IMG/VR virus record: IMGVR_UViG_3300044675_001894
Location: 1 to 64,000 of that record
Reading direction: 5' to 3' (one strand)
Source of the DNA: a virus
Length of the DNA stretch: 64,000 nucleotides
Position 1 is the stretch's first letter; each line of letters starts with the position of its first letter. Shown piece by piece: positions 40,995-55,848 of this stretch. Position numbers and translations under genes: made by a program. Below the pieces are notes generated by a model that was given only the letters and a program-made list of their open reading frames with translations, ran no database searches and was not told the DNA's origin.

Positions 40995-41132
40995 AGTTTC
41001 AAGTATAGGGCTATTTGGGCGGGTTGGGTGGTCGGTCGGATTTTTGGATGGGGCTATTGCGGTGGAGCAGTTCGGGTGGGGCCTGTTGTCTACCCCCCGC
41101 CTCCGCTCGCCCCCTCACTTAACCATGGGGGG

Positions 41133-41232
41133 TTATCCACAGCCCGCTCCATGCCCTGTATGGCTCGCATGGGTTATCCACAGGTACCCCTGTGTACAGC
41201 CTGTGGATACTGTGGAACATCTCTGTGGAACA
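41133..41232. promoter_or_regulatory. DnaA-box cluster
   Basis: TTATCCACA at 41133-41141 and 41174-41182; reverse-oriented TGTGGATAC 41202-41210, TGTGGAACA 41211-41219 and 41224-41232, TGTGTACAG 41191-41199. Confidence 0.75.
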
Positions 41233-41239
41233 TTGGGGG

Positions 41240-41253
41240 CGAACACCCGTTTG
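41240..41253. promoter_or_regulatory. LexA (SOS) box-like site
   Basis: CGAAC-ACCC-GTTTG, one mismatch to CGAAC-N4-GTTCG. Confidence 0.5.
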
Positions 41254-41317
41254 TGTGACGTTCGTCACGTGTGACCATCGTCACATGGATTGTTCCAATC
41301 GTGTGACATTCGTCACA
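41254..41317. promoter_or_regulatory. Three CRP/GlxR-type sites
   Basis: TGTGA-CGTTCG-TCACG 41254-41269; TGTGA-CCATCG-TCACA 41270-41285; TGTGA-CATTCG-TCACA 41302-41317. Confidence 0.75.
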
Positions 41318-41787
41318 AACCCTTGACAAACGCCAAAACGCCTCAGACGCACCACAATGCGTTCTCAGAGGAGGAGGGAGGGATGTAAGGGGTCAAGGCG
41401 GGCAGTGGTACAAAGTACCCTCAGAGAGGCTCTCGTACGCCTACGAATAGGGCTATGAGCCTTGCTGGGTAAGGGTTTGCGGGGTATGGGTAGGTTACGA
41501 AGTACTCGCCACAGCGCCCCAATTGCTATCCACTGCACACTCGCTCCATATCGGCACCTGCACGCAACACAGAGCCTCCTAGGCACCTCTCCTGCCATCC
41601 TGCGGTATTCATTGATCAATTGAATTCTGTGGGTATTCATGCCTCCTCTCTCCTGTATCTCCTCCTCCATCCGATGGATGGCTGGTCGTTGGGGGCGCCC
41701 AATTCCAGCCCTGTCCCCGCCGTCCCGAGGCTCCAGCCCATGCTGGGCAAGGCTCAAAAGAATTCTCAGGAATTGTTTAATTGGGGG

Positions 41788-41818
41788 TTGACAGATGTAC
41801 CCCATCTGTGCGTTTAAT
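41788..41818 (+). promoter_or_regulatory. Putative early promoter with overlapping palindrome
   Basis: TTGACA 41788-41793, TTTAAT 41813-41818 (long 19-nt spacer); ACAGATG-TACCC-CATCTGT 41791-41809. Confidence 0.4.
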
Positions 41819-41941
41819 GGGGGTGGAGGGGGATGCGTCCCCCGCCTCGGTTCCTTGACAAGTGGCAGGTACGGCACGCAGGCTTCGCCCTGCGCATTTT
41901 GCGTTCCTGCCCTCAGAATCAAACATGGTTCAAAATTCCTC

Positions 41942-42068
41942 AGCGTCACGGGCTGGCTTCGGCTGGCTCGTGGCGCTCAATGAGGGCTGGAGGCATTCCC
42001 CCTGCTTCAGCCCTGATTGAGCGCACAGCGCTCCATTGGCACACAGCCAATGCAGTCCTGAGGAGGAC
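41942..42068 (+). ncRNA. Structured intergenic RNA element E0 (hairpins A/B/C plus SD hairpin)
   Basis: A 41942-41977 with c(UUCG)g loop; B 41973-42024; C 42019-42033; GTCCT-GAGG-AGGAC 42055-42068. Confidence 0.75.
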
Positions 42069-42073
42069 ACACC

Positions 42074-43051
42074 ATGGATATTCAACTATCAACACTCAAT
42101 CCTGTGGAACACGATTTGCTGTACATGGAGCGCCTACGGACAGCGTCCAAAGCGAACTACCAGTACCGAATCACCAGCCACTACTTGATCAGTGCCTATG
42201 GCAAGGAGTTGCGTTGGAGCAATGGCTACGGAAGCCGTGACAGCGTTGCTGTCGTGGACTACCGCACCGATCCAATGCCCACCGAATATGCACAAGCACG
42301 TCTCATGGAGTTGTACGGCGAAACTGCCGAGGCAATGTTCAATGACGGCGTGGTCGGCATTTACGGCTCACTGCCAACCCGTGAGGCTGAACGCTTCACT
42401 GAGGCTCGTATCGCAATGGAGGATGCACGGCGTGACCTGCGTGAGTGTGACACCGAATATGACAGCCGTCCTTGGAGTCGTTACTTCTTGGTCACGTCAT
42501 CGGATGGGCACATTCACTCCAGCACACAGTGCTCCACCTGCAATAAGGGCGTCAATGACACTGAGTTTGCACTCGTGCCTTACCTCAGCGGATCCAGTGC
42601 CGATGTTGCGGTTGCCGATCTCGGATCGGCGCTGTGCTCGGTCTGCTTCCCTGATGCTCCCGTGGAGTCACGTGAGCAGGTCAAGATCAGCGCCAGCGTG
42701 GCGTTGACACTTGCCGAGCAGGGCGTGGAGGCATTCCAGCAAGCCCGAGCCAAGGCTCGTGCGAACGCTGTGAAGCGTGCTCAGGAGCGTTGCGAAGGCA
42801 GTGGTCAACCAACGGTCAGAAGTGATCGCTGGCATCATTGCCCAGTATGCGGATATGGACAGCGTGCGGACGGTAAGTCCCGTGCACATCGCCGTCCTCG
42901 CTTCTACGCCACCAAAGAGGTCGGCTACGACACCAAATACTGGAACGGCACCACGTGGGCGCCATCAACCAAGAAGGTTGACCTACTCACTCGTGAGCAG
43001 GCTGAAGCCGTCTTGGTGGCTCACGGTGGCTCACGAGTCATTCAGGATTGA
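42074..43051 (+). CDS. Hypothetical Cys/His-rich early protein
   Basis: GHIHSSTQCSTC, LCSVCFP, CPVCG...H. Confidence 0.75.
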   Translation: MDIQLSTLNPVEHDLLYMERLRTASKANYQYRITSHYLISAYGKELRWSNGYGSRDSVAVVDYRTDPMPTEYAQARLMELYGETAEAMFNDGVVGIYGSLPTREAERFTEARIAMEDARRDLRECDTEYDSRPWSRYFLVTSSDGHIHSSTQCSTCNKGVNDTEFALVPYLSGSSADVAVADLGSALCSVCFPDAPVESREQVKISASVALTLAEQGVEAFQQARAKARANAVKRAQERCEGSGQPTVRSDRWHHCPVCGYGQRADGKSRAHRRPRFYATKEVGYDTKYWNGTTWAPSTKKVDLLTREQAEAVLVAHGGSRVIQD

Positions 43052-43057
43052 TCATTC

Positions 43058-43136
43058 CCCCAGCGCCTAGGGCGTGCCCGTTCAATCGGGACTGGGGACT
43101 ACTGGCACCCGCCAGTTACAACGACCTGAGGAGGTC
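43058..43136 (+). ncRNA. tRNA-like three-way-junction element T1 plus SD hairpin
   Basis: CCCCAG/CTGGGG, CGCC/GGCG, CCCG-TTCAAT-CGGG, ACTGGC/GCCAGT; covaries with T2. Confidence 0.7.
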
Positions 43137-43141
43137 AAGCC

Positions 43142-43828
43142 ATGAATACAGAAGCAATCTACGACAAGGTGCAGGCAATCCTTGATCGTGCCAATCACCC
43201 GAACACGCCACAAGCGGAAGCCGAGACGGCTCTCGCCATGGCACAACGGCTCATGATGAAGCACGGTCTTGAAGAGTCCGCATTCGCCAAGGCTCAAGAT
43301 CGTGACGAGAACATCGTTACCGATCAGATCCCAATCAGTGGTCAATGGCAACTTCGCCGTCTCGGTCTTGCTGGTGCAATCGCTAGTGCCAACTCTGTTG
43401 CCAACTACCGCTCCACATCGTGGGCGGATGGCAAGAAGTCGTTGGTGTTGGTGGTGTACGGCACTGCTGGTGACATCTTCGCTGTCAAGACACTGTTTGC
43501 ATCGGCAGACTTGCTCGCTTCTCGTGTGATCCCAAAGGGTGATCGGTCATTCCGCAATGCGTGGTGGCTCGGATTCTCCTCGGGAGTGCGTGAGGTGTTG
43601 CGCAAGTCCAAGAACGAAGTGATCGCAGAGCAAGGTGCTGGCACTGGGCTGGTGCTCGCTGACAAGTTCAAGCGTGCAGACGCTGAGATGCGTTCAAAAG
43701 TCAAACTCAAGTCCAGTGGGTACTACAGGTACTCATCGGGTAACGGTTACAACGCTGGTCGTTCTGCTGGTCGTTCGTTCAACACTGGTGGCATCGGTAA
43801 CGGTGTCGCTGGAGCGCTCGGACGATGA
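43142..43828 (+). CDS. DUF2786-domain protein
   Basis: KVQAILDRA......EAETALAMAQRLMMKHG; FRNAWWLGF; GYNAGRSAG. Confidence 0.8.
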   Translation: MNTEAIYDKVQAILDRANHPNTPQAEAETALAMAQRLMMKHGLEESAFAKAQDRDENIVTDQIPISGQWQLRRLGLAGAIASANSVANYRSTSWADGKKSLVLVVYGTAGDIFAVKTLFASADLLASRVIPKGDRSFRNAWWLGFSSGVREVLRKSKNEVIAEQGAGTGLVLADKFKRADAEMRSKVKLKSSGYYRYSSGNGYNAGRSAGRSFNTGGIGNGVAGALGR

Positions 43829-44301
43829 GCATCCATGCATACATGGAGGTAGTGCGGGAGGGCGTTGCAAAGCGCTCTCCCAAAATGCCCGAACATCAAG
43901 CCACGGTGTATGCAATTGAGAATGTGGTGGAGCGTCACTTGCCATCGCAAGTGATCGCTACCAAGAACGCATTCGCTTGGCTGGATCGTGTGTGTGAGAC
44001 CGAAGGCTGGGACACGCCGATGGTTGATCGCATCCGATCCACCAAGTGGGCAGGTGTCGCTAGTGCCGAAGGCAATGTCATCGGCATCAGTGGCTCCAGC
44101 ACGACAGCACTGGTACTGGCTCACGAACTCGCTCACATCGTGTGTGGCGAGCGTGGTCACAATGAGTGTTGGCGTAATGCGTTCGTGAACATCGTCCGAG
44201 ATCACATCTCGGTACAGCATGCGTCACTCCTGCATACCTTGTACGAGCGTTTCCAACTTCAATCAGGTCAGTGGAGGCTGACCGACACATCACGAGTGTG
44301 A
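43825..44301 (+). CDS. HEXXH metallopeptidase-like protein (TIGR04338-like)
   Basis: VLAHELAH...GH; coupled to DUF2786 gene. Confidence 0.7.
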   Translation: MSIHAYMEVVREGVAKRSPKMPEHQATVYAIENVVERHLPSQVIATKNAFAWLDRVCETEGWDTPMVDRIRSTKWAGVASAEGNVIGISGSSTTALVLAHELAHIVCGERGHNECWRNAFVNIVRDHISVQHASLLHTLYERFQLQSGQWRLTDTSRV

Positions 44302-44388
44302 ACTCGTGGTGCTGTCATGGCTCATCGGCGCAAGTTGGTGAGTCATGACAGCATCATCCGATGCTGAATAAAGCGACCTGAGGAGGTC
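44288..44388 (+). ncRNA. Structured element E1
   Basis: A 44288-44311 (GUGA loop); B 22-bp stem 44308-44355 (GCAA loop, 5 G-U); C 44349-44366; SD hairpin 44375-44388. Confidence 0.8.
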
Positions 44389-44392
44389 AACC

Positions 44393-44947
44393 ATGAAAAC
44401 ATCAGAGATCAAGCAGATCATTGCCAAGGATCCGAACGCCGTGTTTCGCATTGGCGGTCGTGGTCGGTACACGCACTACGGCTCAATCACAGAGATTAAA
44501 GAAAATGTCGTGGACACTTACAGCAGTTGGGGTCGCAAGACGGGCACCCGTGTCAATGTGTTATTCACAGTGCGTTACGAGTACTTCACTAGTGGCACTG
44601 AGGCTCATTACGGCTACCCCGAGAAGTTGCCTTCAGTAACACTGGAGCGCAACACTTGGACTAAGCCACGTGACATTGAATGGCACGTGTCGGACTTCGG
44701 TCAGACCATTGAAGAATATGTGGTAACGACTGACGCCGAAGTGAAGGCTGACTGGCAGGCAAAGAAGGACAATGACAATGCCAAACAACAACTGATCAAC
44801 CGAATTCTCAACGACTTCGGAATCGTGTTGAGTGTGGGTGATGAAGCCACTGACAAGCGCTGGGATCACCTAAACGATGAGTTGGACAGACTCAGCCTTG
44901 ACACATTGAAAATGCTTGTACACAACTACACACCTTCACGGGTGTGA
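44393..44947 (+). CDS. Hypothetical early protein
   Basis: 184 aa, preceded by SD hairpin. Confidence 0.75.
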   Translation: MKTSEIKQIIAKDPNAVFRIGGRGRYTHYGSITEIKENVVDTYSSWGRKTGTRVNVLFTVRYEYFTSGTEAHYGYPEKLPSVTLERNTWTKPRDIEWHVSDFGQTIEEYVVTTDAEVKADWQAKKDNDNAKQQLINRILNDFGIVLSVGDEATDKRWDHLNDELDRLSLDTLKMLVHNYTPSRV

Positions 44948-44954
44948 TTGGTTC

Positions 44955-45035
44955 CCCTAGCGCCTCGGGCGTGCCGATTCAATTCGGACTAGGGACTGTG
45001 AGCACTCGCTCACTACAAAATACCTGAGGAGGTAT
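44955..45035 (+). ncRNA. tRNA-like element T2 plus SD hairpin
   Basis: CCCTAG/CTAGGG, CGCC/GGCG, CCGA-TTCAAT-TCGG, GTGAGC/GCTCAC, ATACCT-GAGG-AGGTAT. Confidence 0.7.
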
Positions 45036-45039
45036 AGCC

Positions 45040-45363
45040 ATGGCATATCAACTAACAGACTGGGATCTAGAGCAGATCACTGACACGCTGGACATGTATG
45101 AAGCGGGCACCGTGAGGCGGTACTCGGGTCGTGCGATGTACGGCGAGCAGTGTCTCGGCATCGTGACCGAAGATGTGGCATCAGCATTCATGATCCTCGG
45201 ATCAGCACTCGCTGACTTGGGCAATGACGGTAACGCATTGACAAGAAAACTTCTTCGTGAAGTGCGCCAAGACAGCATGGGTCGTGACTCAGCCGTTGTC
45301 TACTTCCCATCCATCACAATGCCCGAGGGTTACGTGGAGGGTGACGAAGACAGCGACAACTAG
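45040..45363 (+). CDS. Hypothetical acidic early protein
   Basis: YSGRAMYGEQCLGI...DSMG...VYFP. Confidence 0.75.
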   Translation: MAYQLTDWDLEQITDTLDMYEAGTVRRYSGRAMYGEQCLGIVTEDVASAFMILGSALADLGNDGNALTRKLLREVRQDSMGRDSAVVYFPSITMPEGYVEGDEDSDN

Positions 45364-45382
45364 TCGTAAGTGGTAGTCGGGA

Positions 45383-45486
45383 GCATCACGGGTTCGCCCG
45401 TGATGCCCTCACAGTGCATCGGCGTTGTGTCGGTGCATTGTGAGGGCATACAATTGCCCGTTCAACTAATAAGACCTGAGGAGGTC
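45383..45486 (+). ncRNA. Structured element E2
   Basis: A 45383-45406 (UUCG loop); B 45403-45449; C 45444-45459; SD hairpin 45473-45486. Confidence 0.8.
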
Positions 45487-45489
45487 ACC

Positions 45490-45744
45490 ATGGATGCAAC
45501 TATTCACAAAGTAACTGGGCTTCGGATTGAGAAGACTGGTGACTCACGACTCCACACGATTGATCTCGTGATTGAGTACGAAGACTTGGCGTTCAGCCGT
45601 CCCCAGTGGGAGCAGGACAACGAGTCATTCGGTTACGCAAAGTTGGAGTCAACGATCACGCTCTTCATCAGTGACACCGCTGATATTGAGACAGTGTTGT
45701 GGAAGGCGATCGCAGATCTCACTTCCGACCTTGCCAATGCGTGA
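45490..45744 (+). CDS. Hypothetical acidic early protein
   Basis: Start moved to MDATIHK (45490), directly after the SD hairpin. Confidence 0.7.
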   Translation: MDATIHKVTGLRIEKTGDSRLHTIDLVIEYEDLAFSRPQWEQDNESFGYAKLESTITLFISDTADIETVLWKAIADLTSDLANA

Positions 45745-45761
45745 GTAATGAGCAATGGGCA

Positions 45762-45868
45762 GTCATGGCGCAAGCCATGGCGTGCTCGGAGTGCACTGAC
45801 CCCCATCGGTGCATTCCGAGGACGCAAGTCCATACTTAGTAATTCAAAACAGAATCTGAGGAGGTTCT
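45762..45868 (+). ncRNA. Structured element E3
   Basis: A 45762-45781 (GCAA); B 45780-45825; C GGAC-GCAA-GTCC; AGAATCT-GAGG-AGGTTCT 45851-45868. Confidence 0.75.
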
Positions 45869-45872
45869 TACC

Positions 45873-46598
45873 ATGGGTGCAATAACACCAAAACAGCAAG
45901 CGTTCATTCGCACAATGCTCCTTGAGCGTGCTTCAACACTCGGTCTTGATGAGGCTGGCGTTGATCAGTACATCATTGATCAGAAGGTGAATGAGTTGTC
46001 AAACAAGTCAGCGTCCACCGTCATTGATGCGATCAAACGCATTGAAATCAAGCGTGTGGGCACCGATCACTTGCCGAAGGCAGAGCGCACCATTGTCAAC
46101 AAGTATGCGAACCCGTGCACATTGTGCGGTCATCCTGTACCTGTTGGTGCTGGTCATGCATTGCTTATCGGTGGCAAGTGGCAGACGTACCACGCACTCG
46201 GTCAGTGCTCCAGCGAAACTGCTGTAGCGCCCGAGCGTGTGAGCAATGAGTTGTTCGGGACATTGCCTGATGGCTTCTATGCAATGAAGTCAACGGGCAC
46301 CAATGACCTCGTGTTCTATGCGGTGAAGACAAACAAGGGTTTTCATGATCCGAAGTTCAAGGGTCACCGCTCCATCTACCTGATCGTAGGTGGACACAAG
46401 GACGAGCGACTCACTGGTGAGCGTGGCGTGAACGCTGTGAAGCGTCTCGTAGCGCTCAACGATGCAGAGCGTGTGCAGGCACGAGCACTGTACGGTCAAG
46501 AGATCGGACGGTGTGGTGTGTGCGGGCGTCATCTCACTGATGAGGCAACACGCAAGCGAGGCATCGGCAATGACTGCGCAAGCAGGTTGGGCATCTAG
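45873..46598 (+). CDS. DUF6011-domain protein
   Basis: ITPKQ..FI N-terminus; YG.EIGRCGVCGRHLTDE..R.RGIG.DC. Confidence 0.8.
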   Translation: MGAITPKQQAFIRTMLLERASTLGLDEAGVDQYIIDQKVNELSNKSASTVIDAIKRIEIKRVGTDHLPKAERTIVNKYANPCTLCGHPVPVGAGHALLIGGKWQTYHALGQCSSETAVAPERVSNELFGTLPDGFYAMKSTGTNDLVFYAVKTNKGFHDPKFKGHRSIYLIVGGHKDERLTGERGVNAVKRLVALNDAERVQARALYGQEIGRCGVCGRHLTDEATRKRGIGNDCASRLGI

Positions 46599-46605
46599 CC
46601 CAAGG

Positions 46606-46699
46606 ATGTCATGGCGTAAGCCATGGCGTCCTCACAACACATCGGGCAACTGGTGTGCTGTGAGGACGCAAGTCCACTAACAATTACCTGAGGAGGTAA
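46606..46699 (+). ncRNA. Structured element E4
   Basis: A 46606-46629 (GUAA); B 46626-46669 (GCAA); C 46664-46675 (GCAA); TTACCT-GAGG-AGGTAA 46684-46699. Confidence 0.8.
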
Positions 46700-46705
46700 C
46701 AGACC

Positions 46706-48238
46706 ATGAATACACAACTAGGAGAACTAAGCGCATTGCTTAGTCGTGTTGAGCGTGTAGCGCCAGCCATCACGGCTGACCCTGCGCTCCATGCGTTAAG
46801 CAGTGCTCACGATGGCGAAGTCGCTGTAGACCTCGCCCAACCTCTCTTCCCATTCCAGCGTGCTGGTGTGGCGTATGCACTCAAGCAACGCCGTGCCATC
46901 ATCGGAGATGAGATGGGGCTGGGTAAGACTCCACAAGGCATCGCAGTAGCAGTGCACGCACACAAGGAGGGACACAAAGTCCTCGTTGTAGTGCCACCAT
47001 CGCTCCGCATCAACTGGCAACGCTCCTTCGCACTGTTCGCACCGTGGCTCTCAACAGCCATTGTGTCGGGCAACAAGGTGACGGCTCTTCCCAAAGCAGA
47101 TGTGCTCATTATTGGTGACAGCATCATTGACACTTGGTCAGTGAGGCTCGTCAATGCCAAGTTCGGCGCACTGATCGTGGACGAGGCACACCGTGCGAAG
47201 AATGCAAAGTCAGGACGCACCAAGGGCATCGCACATATCGCAAAGTCAATCCCGACTGAAGGATATGTGACGCTCTTGAGCGGAACGATCATCGTGAACC
47301 GTCCGAACGAATTGGTCTCGCCATTGTCAATCATTGGCAGGCTTGACCGAGTGTTCGGTGGTAAGTCAGCGTTCCTGTTTCGTTACTGTGACCCGATCCA
47401 CAACGGCTGGGGTTACGTGTATAACGGAGCAACCAACACCACTGAGTTGAACGACAAATTGCGTGGCACCTGCTACGTGAGGCGTAACAAGTCAGATGTG
47501 TTGAAGGAACTACCTGCCAAGCGCCGTGCTCAGGTTGCTACCGAGATCAGCAACACCGATCTCGTGGCATATCGCTCTGCCGAAGAGAACTTCCGTGACT
47601 TCGTCATCGCCAATGGCGGTGTTGAAGCGTGGCAGAGAGCCTCTAAGGCTGAAGTGATTACACGCTTGAATGCATTGCGCAGGTTGCTAGGCATCGCCAA
47701 GATCCCGTATGTGGTTGAGCACGTAGAAGAACTTGTCGCACAAGGCGAGAAGGTCATCGTGTTCGCACACCACAAAGAAGTCATCGCACAACTAAGCAGT
47801 GCTCTTCATGAGCACGGCGTAGTCAAGGTGGCTGGCGGACTCAGCGATGTGCAGAAGCAGGAAGCAGTTGACGCATTCCAAACTGGTAGCGCCAAGGTGT
47901 TCATCGGACAATTTCAATCCGCTGGTGTTGGTCTCACATTGACCGCATCATCGCATGTCGTGTTCGCTGAATTGCCATGGGAGCCAGCCTCCGCAGTACA
48001 AGCCGAAGACCGTGCGCATCGCATCGGTCAAGACAACGCTGTGGTGGCATGGTGGCTACTGGCTGTAGACAACACAAGCGAGATCCCAACAGTGGACGAT
48101 CGCATGTGGGCGCTACTGAATGCCAAACACGAGACAGTCTCGGCTGTCTTGACGGGGCATGGTGAGGACATGGGCGCCGAGGGTGCGACAAGCATCACTC
48201 AATCGCTCATTGAAGGCATCATCGGCAACGGAGGTTGA
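46706..48238 (+). CDS. SNF2-family (HARP-like) helicase/ATPase
   Basis: DEMGLGKT, DEAH, LSGT, GVGLTLT, QAEDRAHRIGQ. Confidence 0.95.
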   Translation: MNTQLGELSALLSRVERVAPAITADPALHALSSAHDGEVAVDLAQPLFPFQRAGVAYALKQRRAIIGDEMGLGKTPQGIAVAVHAHKEGHKVLVVVPPSLRINWQRSFALFAPWLSTAIVSGNKVTALPKADVLIIGDSIIDTWSVRLVNAKFGALIVDEAHRAKNAKSGRTKGIAHIAKSIPTEGYVTLLSGTIIVNRPNELVSPLSIIGRLDRVFGGKSAFLFRYCDPIHNGWGYVYNGATNTTELNDKLRGTCYVRRNKSDVLKELPAKRRAQVATEISNTDLVAYRSAEENFRDFVIANGGVEAWQRASKAEVITRLNALRRLLGIAKIPYVVEHVEELVAQGEKVIVFAHHKEVIAQLSSALHEHGVVKVAGGLSDVQKQEAVDAFQTGSAKVFIGQFQSAGVGLTLTASSHVVFAELPWEPASAVQAEDRAHRIGQDNAVVAWWLLAVDNTSEIPTVDDRMWALLNAKHETVSAVLTGHGEDMGAEGATSITQSLIEGIIGNGG

Positions 48239-48318
48239 TCGTGGGCGCTCGGCGCCTCATGGTCGGCGCCAGTAGCGACAGACGATGTGTTCTTGTCCTC
48301 ACGAGAACCCATCACAGT

Positions 48319-48421
48319 GCATCACGGGCGCAAGCCCGTGGTGTTCTGACAGTACATTGGCACACCGCTTGTGTACTGTCAGAACATCACCCGATGTTCA
48401 AGTAACAACGCCTGAGGAGGC
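48319..48421 (+). ncRNA. Structured element E5
   Basis: A 48319-48344 (GCAA); B 48340-48388; C 48382-48399; GCCT-GAGG-AGGC 48410-48421. Confidence 0.8.
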
Positions 48422-48424
48422 ACC

Positions 48425-48661
48425 ATGAAAGTAAGTCAAGCAATCAAGTTATTGAGTGAGATCAACCCTGACGAAGAGATCGCTATCTCTTGGTGGGAAT
48501 CAAACTTGTTCACTGACAAAGACAACAACCAACTATTGGCAGACTCAGAACTGTGGCTCAAGGCAGTCGCAGTGTTTGACGCCAACGGTGGTTACGACAG
48601 CGTCAACCAATTGGTATGGGATTACCTCAATTACGACATCAATCAAGAAGGAGAGTTTTAA
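48425..48661 (+). CDS. Small acidic early protein
   Basis: 78 aa after SD hairpin. Confidence 0.7.
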   Translation: MKVSQAIKLLSEINPDEEIAISWWESNLFTDKDNNQLLADSELWLKAVAVFDANGGYDSVNQLVWDYLNYDINQEGEF

Positions 48662-48904
48662 ATGGACATTTCAGAAGCAATTCAAACAATGATCACTAAT
48701 CGCCACCTCAAAGAACACGAAATAGTGGTGAGGTGGTCGTGGTGCGACATCCAAGCGATGTACCCACAGTGGACAGAAGACCAATGCCGAGATGCCCTGT
48801 ATGAAGTTGACGATTATGTACACGAGAGAATCGTGGAACTCGGCAACGATGTGTTGAAGCAACTTGTATACGAAATCGTTGAAACGAAATGGGAGAGTGA
48901 ATAA
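48662..48904 (+). CDS. Small acidic early protein
   Basis: 80 aa, AAGGAG RBS. Confidence 0.7.
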   Translation: MDISEAIQTMITNRHLKEHEIVVRWSWCDIQAMYPQWTEDQCRDALYEVDDYVHERIVELGNDVLKQLVYEIVETKWESE

Positions 48905-49209
48905 TGAACAACATCGGAACACCAATCGGTGCATGGGCAATCATCAAGTGGTATGACTCAGGCATTGAGAGCGAGGTATTCATCTCGTTCGGTACATGGA
49001 ATGAGAACGAGTGGAACGGCGAGTTTGACTCGTTCGGGAATCGTGACGATGAGGTCTTCTTCTACTGCGAAGGTGGAGAAGAGGAACTCAAGTCGCTCAT
49101 GGGTGACAGCAAGGAAGACTTCGTGGTCATCAACTACGCAGTTGACTACAGCATCCCGCTCGTGCTCGCTGACATGGACGAGCCAGTATTCAAGGAGGAA
49201 GCACAATGA
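48904..49209 (+). CDS. Small acidic early protein
   Basis: 101 aa, coupled. Confidence 0.7.
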   Translation: MNNIGTPIGAWAIIKWYDSGIESEVFISFGTWNENEWNGEFDSFGNRDDEVFFYCEGGEEELKSLMGDSKEDFVVINYAVDYSIPLVLADMDEPVFKEEAQ

Positions 49210-49469
49210 TCGGTACAAAGAGTTGGCTACTGACAGGTTGTTATGTAGACGGCACACACGGCGTCTACAGCGCCATGGAAGCGTGCAGGATCGCACGAGA
49301 ACTCGGATGGGATGGGCAACAGCCCACAGACATTGAGGACTCGTGGTACCAAGAAGAGGTAGCCACGGAATGGCTGAACGAAATGATCGCTGATGATGGT
49401 CACTCGTTCGGCTGGCATGACGCCGAATACTTCTACATGCCACAAGCATGGTGGGAGGATGTCGCTTGA
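49206..49469 (+). CDS. Small acidic early protein
   Basis: 87 aa, AGGAGG RBS. Confidence 0.7.
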   Translation: MIGTKSWLLTGCYVDGTHGVYSAMEACRIARELGWDGQQPTDIEDSWYQEEVATEWLNEMIADDGHSFGWHDAEYFYMPQAWWEDVA

Positions 49470-49475
49470 TCGGGA

Positions 49476-49586
49476 GCATCACGGGCTACGGCTCGTGGTG
49501 TCCTCACAGCCCATAAATCATATTTGTGGGTTGTGAGGGCACTCAGTGCCCGATAAATTAATTAATCCCTATGACCTGAGGAGGTC
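49476..49586 (+). ncRNA. Structured element E6
   Basis: A 49476-49501 c(UACG)g; B 21-bp stem 49498-49542; C 49537-49551; SD hairpin 49573-49586. Confidence 0.8.
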
Positions 49587-49588
49587 TT

Positions 49589-49948
49589 ATGTTAGAGCCA
49601 GTAATCACGATGACCGTTGAGCAATGGGAAGAGCAATACGAACCCTTTGTCAATCACCTAGATGCAGATGCATCATGGGCAACCGATGACGCCAACGGCA
49701 TCATGTTTGAAACGTACGGTGCCGAAGTTGATTATGTGTTTGCCCGACCGCTCAACCACACATGGACATATGTGGATGGCGAAGAGGGCACATACATTAT
49801 TGCTGGACGCCATCTCGTAAATCGCATCGGTTACTTCGTAACTGCGGTGCCATGGAAGGATGACTTCAACACCAAGTATGAAATTCAAGTAAGCGCCAAT
49901 GATGATTATTACCAAACAGTGTTAGACCTTGAAGGAGGTAGCAAATGA
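49589..49948 (+). CDS. Small acidic early protein
   Basis: MFETYG.E...WT.VDG...G.H.VNRIGYFVT..PW. Confidence 0.75.
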   Translation: MLEPVITMTVEQWEEQYEPFVNHLDADASWATDDANGIMFETYGAEVDYVFARPLNHTWTYVDGEEGTYIIAGRHLVNRIGYFVTAVPWKDDFNTKYEIQVSANDDYYQTVLDLEGGSK

Positions 49949-50166
49949 GCAAGATCAGTTTTGACAATGTGGATGAAGGTACCGAGGTAGAAGTACTCGT
50001 GCAGATATCCCCGAGGGAGACATTCCCGTACACAGGGATCGTTTCACGAGTCAGTGACACCGAGTTGTCAATGTGGACTACAGACAGTCCGAACGACACT
50101 TACGAGACCGAGCGTGAGATTGATATTCCAATCGCAAAGATCCTTGAACTGGACATCTTTGAATAA
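49945..50166 (+). CDS. Small acidic early protein
   Basis: 73 aa, AGGAGG RBS. Confidence 0.7.
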   Translation: MSKISFDNVDEGTEVEVLVQISPRETFPYTGIVSRVSDTELSMWTTDSPNDTYETEREIDIPIAKILELDIFE

Positions 50167-50202
50167 TGAATCGTTAAGCGAGTCCTGAGAGGCTTGTACG
50201 AA

Positions 50203-50327
50203 GGGTGGCATCAGCCTCGGCTGGTGTCATCCCGTGGATGCTCTGCTTCCTATAGGGGGTCAGCGGAGCGTCCACGGGGTGAGGCAACTGTGCAACACCT
50301 GTACATAACAATGATCTGAGGAGGTCA
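50203..50327 (+). ncRNA. Structured element E7
   Basis: A 50203-50232; B 50227-50282; C weak; TGATCT-GAGG-AGGTCA 50312-50327. Confidence 0.7.
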
Positions 50328-50329
50328 AA

Positions 50330-50575
50330 ATGAGTAAATGGAATGTAACGGTCTCGCTCCAAACGGGCGTGTACCTAAAAGAAGTCATTGCAAATGATCC
50401 ATCAACATTGATTGAGGGAGACCTCAATGAAGCAGATGTGATCAAAGCATTGATTGAGCAATTGCAGTCGGGTGATTCAACACTGGACTGGGTAGTGGAA
50501 GAAGTGCAAACACTGGACGGTCGTGTCGTGCGGTTTGACGATGAGGATCGTGTATGGCTCGGAGATGCAGTATGA
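50330..50575 (+). CDS. Small acidic early protein
   Basis: 81 aa after SD hairpin. Confidence 0.7.
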   Translation: MSKWNVTVSLQTGVYLKEVIANDPSTLIEGDLNEADVIKALIEQLQSGDSTLDWVVEEVQTLDGRVVRFDDEDRVWLGDAV

Positions 50576-50778
50576 GCAAAGGCTGGGTCACACAGATCGT
50601 CATGCTTCTCGGTGTCACGGAGATGGAAGCCGAACAGATTGACAAGTACGCCCTTGAAGAAGGGCTGTACAACGAGATAGACAGCAGTGAAGCCAGTGTG
50701 GCAGAACTTAAAGGGTTCTACGCAATGGTTAGCGATGAGTACAGAAGAGCAAACAACATTGAAACAAAGAGCCTTTAG
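50572..50778 (+). CDS. Small hypothetical protein
   Basis: Start MSKG (50572) overlaps upstream stop, GGAG RBS. Confidence 0.6.
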   Translation: MSKGWVTQIVMLLGVTEMEAEQIDKYALEEGLYNEIDSSEASVAELKGFYAMVSDEYRRANNIETKSL

Positions 50779-50789
50779 GAGGGCACAAC

Positions 50790-51086
50790 ATGGGAACAAT
50801 TAATGCACTAGGCATGGCGGAAGCCGTGGAAGACGGAATGATTGAACTGCGTCAGGCGCTCGCATGGCACCTGCAAAGCAATCACTATCCAGCAGTACCA
50901 CTGAACATGGTTGATCCATGTGTTATTGCAATTCAGTTAGTCACCGAAGGTGAGCACGACAGCAATGTCTCGCTCCCCGACGGAATCTTGTGGCGAGGTC
51001 AGCCAGTTGCTCCAGCGTGGGCAGTTGTAGACGCACACCACCTTGAATCATTCATTGACATCAGCGAAGAAGAATGGGGTTTCTAA
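50790..51086 (+). CDS. Small hypothetical protein
   Basis: WHLQSNHYP.VP; degenerate SD hairpin GCCTT-TAGG-AGGGC 50771-50784. Confidence 0.7.
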   Translation: MGTINALGMAEAVEDGMIELRQALAWHLQSNHYPAVPLNMVDPCVIAIQLVTEGEHDSNVSLPDGILWRGQPVAPAWAVVDAHHLESFIDISEEEWGF

Positions 51087-53033: not shown

Positions 53034-53422
53034 CCGAAGCGCTGGTGGGGGAGCAATCCCCCACCTATGCTCGGGACACCGAATACACAGCCTTACCATT
53101 CCCCGAAGTGATGGCGGAATGGAGATCGCAAGCCAAGTGCAAAGATGAAGACGGATCACTGTGGTTTGCCAGCAAGCCGAAAGGCATTAACAACTCATCC
53201 ATCAAAGGAAGAATTGTTAACAGCCGTAGGAAGCGGGCACAGCGTATTTGTAAAGTGTGTCCTGTTCAGTATGAATGCCTGCGCTACGCCGTCTTGAATG
53301 ACTTCAGGGATGGCATATGGGCTGGTTATGAAATGGATGACCTCACACATACAGACCGTCAAGTACTTCGTCAGCGTATTAAACGAGCAGAACGAAAGTT
53401 AAGTAAGACTGTCAATAAGTGA
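53030..53422 (+). CDS. whiB: WhiB-family transcription factor
   Basis: W..QAKC...C..CPV..EC...GIWAG. Confidence 0.85.
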   Translation: MTEALVGEQSPTYARDTEYTALPFPEVMAEWRSQAKCKDEDGSLWFASKPKGINNSSIKGRIVNSRRKRAQRICKVCPVQYECLRYAVLNDFRDGIWAGYEMDDLTHTDRQVLRQRIKRAERKLSKTVNK

Positions 53423-55431: not shown

Positions 55432-55848
55432 TTAAGGCTGAATCAACCTAAACTTAAGCATCTCTAAATCAATCTCTTTGTCACCCATCTTAGGAATCTC
55501 TTCAATATTTATTTTATTAATCTCTGCTGACTCTGCTTCCGCACACTCATTACAGCGACAACCTTGTCTGTAACGCACCCAGGTGCCATGTTGACGCATG
55601 ATGCTCGCTTTAGGATGCTCTACAGTGAGCGCTGTTCGCTCTTGTGGTGTGAGACCGCCCCACATTCCCCACTTCTCATCCACCCCATCGTCTAAACATT
55701 CTTTCCACACAGGACATTGGCGACATACTGCTTTAGAAATTATGTAGTAATTATCTGGTACGTCAGTGTCTAGCGGTGGGTACCAAAGGTCAATGGCTCG
55801 GTCTTTGCAAAGTGCGTCAACACGCCAGTCCTCTGCGAACTGTGGCAA
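55432..55848 (-). CDS. whiB: WhiB-family transcription factor with extra HGT...CRC..C motif
   Basis: W...ALC...C..CPV..EC...GMWGGLTP.ER. Confidence 0.9.
   Translation of the reverse strand: MPQFAEDWRVDALCKDRAIDLWYPPLDTDVPDNYYIISKAVCRQCPVWKECLDDGVDEKWGMWGGLTPQERTALTVEHPKASIMRQHGTWVRYRQGCRCNECAEAESAEINKINIEEIPKMGDKEIDLEMLKFRLIQP

Follow-up and report, generated by a model that had tools for sequence, protein, structure and literature searches.

Here, we report that eight intercistronic gaps in one phage operon carry the same stack of three RNA hairpins, and that in related phages the same position before orthologous genes is filled by this stack, a small three-way junction or a type II hammerhead ribozyme. 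The operon lies in a 64,000-nucleotide stretch of DNA (the window), positions 1–64000 of the single 96,857-bp virus record IMGVR_UViG_3300044675_001894, which is complete by CheckV. On the plus strand between 41.9 and 50.3 kb, each of the eight gaps contains a hairpin A, a long hairpin B and a hairpin C, followed by a spacer and a hairpin holding the Shine–Dalgarno (SD) motif; we refer to the three-hairpin stack as the class 1 module. The slot runs from stop codon through module, A-rich spacer and SD hairpin to the start codon. The class 1 module is a cis-acting RNA structure of the plus strand. What is new is its fold, the overlaps built into it, and its exchange with hammerheads and with a second unknown fold (class 2) before the same genes. 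We propose, with about even confidence, that the module is a device for intercistronic processing, capping and insulation.

The SD motif CTGAGGAGG marks the array: it occurs ten times, all on the plus strand between 42058 and 50324, where 0.3 occurrences are expected, and it sits within a hairpin of 4–6 bp. Ten gaps end in this motif, eight with the class 1 module and two with a different small three-way junction. The A-rich spacers, as read from the sequence, often carry stop codons. All eight class 1 copies were found where the original prediction had placed them. Their primary sequences had been described as differing widely, which holds for modules I1 and I10 only: these are longer, cannot be aligned to the other six and share with them the architecture, in an identical hairpin order, whereas the other six are homologous and align by sequence alone at 65% mean column identity, with A and B in register. 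Plus-strand folding of every gap gave z-scores of −5.6 to −8.3 against dinucleotide shuffles, the minus strand folding less strongly (−1.8 to −5.4), and the hairpin stacks amount to −40 to −57 kcal/mol. The copies are listed here with these z-scores and with their bit scores on either strand against the covariance model described after the list.

Module I1, plus strand, 41942–42033 (with leader 41942..42076), divergent form: closing helix 41942–41946 with 42028–42032; A 41947–41972; B 41973–42024; C 42019–42033; extra hairpin ~42034–42054; SD motif 42058–42066; ATG 42074; z −5.9; weak model match of 23.5 bits.
Module I3, plus strand, 44286–44366 (with leader 44286..44395): A 44289–44310; B 44311–44352; C 44349–44366; spacer; SD motif 44378–44386; ATG 44393; 79.1 bits on the plus strand, 27.7 on the minus; z −7.3.
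Module I5, plus strand, 45377–45461 (with leader 45377..45492): A 45385–45404; B 45405–45447; C 45444–45459; spacer; SD motif 45476–45484; ATG 45490; 78.9 bits plus, 32.2 minus; z −7.9.
Module I6, plus strand, 45755–45833 (with leader 45755..45875): A 45762–45781; B 45782–45823; C 45820–45831; predicted closing helix round A and B; SD motif 45856–45864; ATG 45873; 73.7 bits plus, 25.0 minus; z −8.3.
Module I7, 5′ of the SNF2 helicase gene, plus strand, 46603–46676 (with leader 46603..46708): A 46608–46627; B 46628–46667; C 46664–46675; SD motif 46688–46696; ATG 46706; 72.4 bits plus, 28.8 minus; z −7.1.
Module I8, plus strand, 48317–48399 (with leader 48317..48427): A 48321–48342; B 48343–48385; C 48382–48399; SD motif 48412–48420; ATG 48425; 81.2 bits plus, 32.3 minus.
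Module I9, plus strand, 49470–49553 (with leader 49470..49591): A 49478–49499; B 49500–49540; C 49537–49551; predicted closing helix 49470–49475 with ~49548–49553; SD motif 49576–49584; ATG 49589; 77.0 bits plus, 29.0 minus; z −7.9.
Module I10, plus strand, 50200–50302 (with leader 50200..50332), divergent form: A 50203–50232; B 50233–50276; branched C 50277–50300; SD motif 50316–50324; ATG 50330; z −6.6; missed by the model (R1).

We built a covariance model of A and B (28 pairs) and searched the window together with its relatives, 26 IMG/VR contigs fetched through the helicase at 52–100% protein identity. The model returned 124 plus-strand matches (43–82 bits, E 1e-7 or better), and all 124 module copies lie in the sense orientation. 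Within the phage's own genome it matched only six gaps, at 44.3–49.6 kb, whose copies scored 72–81 bits on the plus strand and 25–32 bits on the minus strand; across all matched places in the window and relatives, the minus strand reached 12–37 bits. Among 68 distinct copies, 96.1% of the cells pair and 21 of the 28 pairs show compensatory changes on both sides. None of 500 shuffles attained these values, and sliding one strand lowered the pairing to 30–49%. Several pairs are G-U in most copies, at one position of A in 63 of 68; such pairs would be A-C mismatches on the other strand, so the structure is strand-specific. Orthologues of I1 and I10, which were left out of model building, kept the A-B-C layout when aligned with MAFFT and folded with RNAalifold, with compensatory changes in 12 of 35 pairs for I1 (n = 7) and 6 of 35 for I10 (n = 6). 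Hairpin A measures 8–13 bp and mostly ends in a GNRA or UNCG loop (30 and 12, respectively, of 47 distinct copies), and B is mostly 18–19 bp (range 15–22) with a loop of 3–5 nt. Some pairs, two of them in A and several in B, stay the same in 67–68 of the 68 distinct copies; elsewhere B is mostly free to vary, with compensation. The earlier view that the element is a plus-strand RNA structure is borne out by covariation, by the conserved G-U pairs and by tetraloops of RNA type.

The three hairpins share nucleotides. C begins with the final 4 nt of B, and B is shortened by 4 bp when C forms. None of the 68 distinct copies has lost any of the four pairs that close C, whose sequence covaries across six types; at the bottom of B, the four matching pairs are complete in 41 copies, and the other 27 have one mismatch. 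Likewise, A can be extended into B by its first base in 84% of copies and by two bases in 61%. The original prediction had described such sharing on both sides of B but as a single base; the actual extent is 1–2 nt between A and B and 4 nt between B and C, and the mutual exclusion it had drawn between a full-length B and full A and C is supported. In constrained folds, a conformer with full B and one with C formed and A extended lie within ~4 kcal/mol of each other. C, the spacer and the SD hairpin are retained in every copy. A helix closing A and B into a three-way junction is the predicted minimum in I1, I6, I7 and I9 and is weak or absent in other subtypes; as a family feature it was rejected, with duplex energies ranging from −0.8 to −15.7 kcal/mol while C is always present. 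In the I1 type, one relative has all four interacting segments altered in concert.

The class 1 module is one of several occupants of its slot. Before orthologous genes in the relatives, the slot is filled by class 1, by the class 2 three-way junction or by a type II hammerhead; a crude classifier assigned ~110 or more class 1, 74 class 2 and 8 hammerhead modules to 234 SD-preceded genes of the window and relatives. The clearest series is a family of 172–176-aa proteins, whose gene has class 1 upstream in contig L008, class 2 in L010 and a type II hammerhead in L024, the protein being 94% identical in L010 and 59% identical in L024. Four window genes, including that of the helicase, switch between class 1 and class 2 among relatives; the gene at 45040, for instance, is preceded by class 2 in the window and by class 1 in contigs L137 and L138. 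In L138, a single operon combines six class 1 copies, several class 2 copies and one hammerhead. A scan of IMG/VR with the 14-nt SD hairpin gave mostly single chance matches, and only the multi-hit contigs L137 and L138 were informative. The genes preceded by hammerheads in L024 have no orthologues in the operon of the window, with one weak match of 27% identity elsewhere in the genome, and the orthologue comparison therefore relied on L008 and L010. These results establish the slot equivalence of class 1 modules and hammerheads. The other occupants are as follows.

Class 2 module, plus strand, 43052–43141 (to 43144 with ATG): three-way junction, conserved 6-nt loop, hairpin, spacer; SD motif 43126–43134; ATG 43142.
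Second class 2 module, plus strand, 44948–45039 (to 45042 with ATG): three-way junction, hairpin, spacer; SD motif 45024–45032; ATG 45040.
Seven type II hammerheads in consecutive gaps, L024:1296–3675 (IMGVR_UViG_3300003413_000045): each directly 5′ of the common spacer and SD hairpin.
One hammerhead, L138:2442–2501, 32.6 bits: directly 5′ of the spacer and SD hairpin.

In L024, the CUGANGA and GAAA core is invariant across the seven hammerheads, which also have a GUC site and, as in type II, an open stem II; they show 99% pairing with compensatory changes in 8 of 16 pairs. All hammerheads of L024 and L138 fall under the Rfam gathering threshold, those of L024 with E-values of 0.0017–0.08, and all have a complete core. 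The cleavage position, as deduced from their sequence, lies between the stem III hairpin, which has a UNCG or GNRA loop, and the stem I hairpin. The upstream RNA would thus end in a capped hairpin, and the downstream RNA would start with a hairpin followed by the spacer and the SD hairpin. The class 2 family, represented in relatives by 29 distinct clusters, has compensatory changes in 8 of 13 pairs and invariant runs of C and G in the stem that closes it; its 6-nt loop is fixed and resembles a T-loop, and a tetraloop hairpin follows the junction. Neither Rfam nor ARAGORN gave a match to it; it is a candidate substrate of RNase P or Z, or a candidate ribozyme of an unknown kind.

Next, we searched for known families in the class 1 module. 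With Rfam 15 at gathering thresholds, the whole window gave no match and nine relatives gave nothing relevant for class 1; in E-value mode, the region 41000–51000 returned only chance-level microRNA-type and PyrR-type sub-threshold matches and no ribozyme or tRNA model. The hammerhead core (CUGANGA, GAAA and a NUH site) was looked for in class 1 and is absent, being invariant only in the modules of L024 and L138. Class 1 is a well-supported structured RNA absent from Rfam, and together with class 2 it is a candidate of the kind that earlier yielded new ribozyme classes.

The surrounding genes point to one long transcript. All genes from 42074 to ~53000 are on the plus strand and include DUF2786, DUF6011 and SNF2 helicase genes. 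Promoter-like sites are rarer in this stretch than in shuffled sequence, with none within the gaps of the operon, and a terminator scan found no terminator-like site at any class 1 module, where the tails are A-rich. Transcription of the operon as one long message by the host RNA polymerase is the simplest reading. As regards a hairpin promoter read by a phage-encoded RNA polymerase, no T7-type RNA polymerase domain was detected, but that search was also blank in control genomes, which makes it weak evidence and no proof of absence; an unusual phage RNA polymerase is conceivable. The phage itself has a 47% G+C genome in which no tRNA genes were found. It encodes a tail sheath, baseplate J, a family A DNA polymerase, a DnaB-type helicase and a primase, and is therefore a myovirus replicating its own DNA; its largest open reading frames (ORFs) are PolA, helicases, primase and tail proteins. 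Megablast and blastn searches of 50,697 phage records gave no match to it and revealed no close cultured relative, and its proteins reach at best ~30–35% identity with those of cultured phages, mostly actinophages. One operon protein matches actinophages only, and two genes of the WhiB family, which marks actinobacterial phages as well as their hosts, lie at 53120–53335 on the plus strand and 55627–55827 on the minus strand; on these grounds, the host is probably an actinobacterium. A search for a phage-encoded RNase III found none, so any such cutting enzyme would be the host's.

How might the module work? We suggest that the transcript would be cut between cistrons, as the hammerhead does in the same slot of the sister phages. 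Cleavage would leave the upstream message with the tetraloop-capped hairpin A at its 3′ end and the downstream message starting with hairpin C ahead of a standardised ribosome-binding site. A host endonuclease specific for double strands, for which RNase III is the obvious candidate, probably targets the near-perfect long duplex B. Because B shares nucleotides with A and C, its lower part could pass to A and C after cleavage. The processing-site idea, already part of the original prediction, gains indirect support from hammerheads that cut between two hairpins in the same slot, and since the outer parts of class 1 (A with the same loop types, and C) match the hammerhead flanks, B would by analogy be the part that is cut. 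As class 1 lacks a hammerhead core, a protein enzyme would have to do the cutting, if it occurs. A uniform leader of this kind would make the expression of each gene independent of its neighbours and permit ORF exchange between phages at module edges. That the RNA is cut, by which enzyme and at what site, and that A and C serve as caps, is inferred.

Several points weigh against this proposal. Slot equivalence means a common position, not a common chemistry, and the stack could do another job, such as blocking exonucleases. RNase III sites of the T7 type have a double-stranded stem of about two helical turns; B is mostly 18–19 bp and 4 bp less when C forms. It is often 15–19 bp once C has formed, at or below the usually quoted length of an RNase III substrate. 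The covariation alignment was fitted to the model and many of its rows are close kin, so its counts overstate the independent events. The early timing of the operon is assumed. A search of public RNA data returned three runs: two from wastewater carry an RNA-Seq label but probably represent DNA, and the third, a freshwater metatranscriptome, contained 7% of the words; all three consist of assembled contigs, which give no ends, strand or level.

The strongest competitor to the cut-and-cap proposal, which we hold possible at roughly half its credence, is that the module insulates and stabilises without any endonucleolytic step, in the manner of the repetitive extragenic palindromes and bacterial interspersed mosaic elements (REP/BIME) of host genomes. 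The intact stack would block 3′ exonucleases and the 5′-acting RNase J, keep Rho and upstream ribosomes off the gap and hold the SD context constant. Such a role suits the great stability of the stack with its tetraloop caps, the presence of C, spacer and SD hairpin in every copy and the A-rich spacers with their frequent stop codons. It leaves unexplained why the module gives way before orthologous genes to hammerheads, which have no known activity other than cleavage, and why B keeps an overlap with A and C that is of no obvious use to a static block.

An RNA-binding protein of the phage or the host, for instance a translational repressor, timing switch or antiterminator, might bind the module and read the conserved pairs of A and B, but we consider this unlikely. 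The pairs of A and B fixed in nearly all distinct copies are what such a protein might recognise, but compensated changes occur freely over most of B, the architecture persists in I1 and I10 where the sequence does not, and unrelated folds and ribozymes substitute for the module.

An attenuator or terminator without a U tract, with read-through lowered at each copy to yield an expression gradient along the operon, is very improbable. Strong G+C-rich hairpins do stand directly after stop codons, and U-less terminators have been proposed for Actinobacteria, although they are disputed. However, no U tract follows A, B or C, the terminator scan was negative at all modules, a series of eight to ten terminators would leave the distal helicase gene and those after it almost silent, and hammerheads do not terminate transcription. 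An intrinsic terminator was rejected on the missing U tract, the A-rich tails and the same scan.

The modules are also places where genomes have been joined. In BLASTN comparisons of the window with its relatives, breakpoints recurred at the edges between stop codon and module and between SD, ATG and gene (42072–42076, 43049–43055, 44390–44398, 44944–44953, 45373–79, 48398–48434 and 50166–50170). Within 41.9–50.4 kb, 26 of 60 distinct breakpoints, which are non-independent points, fell in the gaps, which make up 16% of the sequence; further breakpoints lie at gene edges that have no module. This clustering marks the modules as sites of cassette exchange, as had been surmised under the name of crossover points; exchange may proceed by homology, or such junctions may be the only ones to survive. 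Metagenome contigs likewise have joints and loose ends at module places, including an end of I8 joined to the SD region of I5, although such breaks are expected from repeats and were not used as RNA evidence. Cassette exchange raises the prospect that the module is mainly a homologous linker at the DNA level, or a small mobile palindrome, with an incidental RNA fold; the excess of breakpoints and contig joints at its edges speaks for this, but we give it hardly any weight, because the copies are sense-oriented throughout, the conserved G-U pairs would mispair on the other strand, the compensatory changes and the tetraloops of RNA type indicate that the RNA is under selection, and breakpoints also occur at module-free gene edges.

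Beyond the single module, the lineage might run a natural plug-and-play expression standard, in which at least three interchangeable RNA-cutting devices stand before a fixed spacer and SD hairpin; we put this forward tentatively. The devices would be an RNase III duplex, a tRNA-like junction for RNase P or Z and the hammerhead. For class 1, cleavage of B would set off a strand exchange: A and C would claim the base of B, and both products would thereby be released and capped. It is a long shot that one of the two classes, 1 or 2, is a self-cleaving ribozyme of a new kind, come upon through its association with hammerheads. A ribozyme, a hairpin stack and a small junction are interchangeable before the same genes, and the function is whatever all three share. 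If the proposal is right, a uniform self-insulating leader explains how unrelated genes are swapped at exact edges without loss of expression, and the module could supply compact insulator parts for Actinobacteria.

Among known systems, the class 1 module comes closest in function to the RNase III sites of T7, in layout to the start-associated sequences of Cluster K mycobacteriophages and in logic to RiboJ. Each T7 site consists of one irregular stem, interrupted by an internal loop, and is cut once. Like them, the class 1 modules are hairpins in the gaps of a polycistronic transcript made by the host polymerase, all copies lying on one strand between a stop codon and the next SD motif, and the proposed outcome is again single-gene messages with a protective hairpin. 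Here, by contrast, three hairpins abut and overlap, B is near-perfect, no sequence relation exists, the host is probably actinobacterial and cleavage is putative. REP/BIME are repeated stable hairpins in the gaps of enterobacterial operons that can stabilise the upstream message; they are host-genome repeats in either orientation, whereas the modules are phage-borne, strictly sense and tied to an SD hairpin.

In Cluster K, the start-associated sequence (SAS) is a 13-bp consensus 3–8 bp before start codons, and the extended SAS (ESAS), directly upstream of it, is a 17-bp imperfect inverted repeat with a 4–13-nt spacer (PMC3203893). The likeness lies in a short SD-containing motif of unknown function before many starts, in one orientation and ahead of genes of different families; in Cluster K it is often preceded by the ~17-bp inverted repeat with its short spacer (PMC3203893). 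B is an inverted repeat of ESAS-like size, with a loop of 3–5 nt; A and C lie on either side of it, and a spacer stands between it and the SD motif. The consensus differs, as the motif here is CTGAGGAGG and none of that type is reported for Cluster K, and the ESAS is one inverted repeat rather than an A-B-C stack, with no ribozyme swap reported for the SAS (PMC3203893). The present phage group is uncultured and unrelated to Cluster K.

Arrays of hammerheads between the genes of phages have been on record since 2011 (PMC3088659). For tandem hammerheads that flank prophage genes, the proposed role is the processing of polycistronic RNA (Perreault et al. 2011, PMC3088659), and the purpose of phage hammerhead arrays is still open (PMC6765202). 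Clustered phage hammerheads resemble class 1 in occupying the same slot in the same orientation, one module per gene, and here the two alternate before orthologous genes; unlike them, class 1 lacks both the hammerhead core and conserved unpaired nucleotides, and it is matched by no Rfam ribozyme model. RiboJ is an engineered ribozyme and hairpin ahead of a ribosome-binding site, and its succession of cleavage device, hairpin and ribosome-binding site likewise gives each gene an identical 5′ end whatever lies upstream (PMC6206723). It is engineered, single-copy and ribozyme-based, whereas the module is natural, arrayed and available in several interchangeable versions.

Finally, we noted several features of the operon and its leaders. 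At 48425–49469, four small genes have overlapping or abutting stops and starts and no modules between them, so modules mark only some gene junctions. Comparison of 48400–48427 with L001:9693–10027 showed that this relative has an inserted extra gene with a class 2 module, and a 28-bp segment of SD hairpin and ATG flanks the insertion on both sides, as recombination through a shared leader predicts. In I1, the 5′ flank (41936–41943) is complementary to the SD motif at 42058–42066, and the predicted pairing closes the whole leader; the complementary flank is retained in relatives L019, L024, L137 and L138, and the pairing may act as a gate on the first gene of the operon. The sole other genomic copy of the SD-hairpin sequence is inverted and lies outside the window, at genome positions 77684–77695 (L068:13684–13695), in an intergenic plus-strand stretch that also holds a run like the 3′ end of 16S rRNA; this inverted copy near 77.69 kb could be an anti-SD small RNA directed against all ten leaders.

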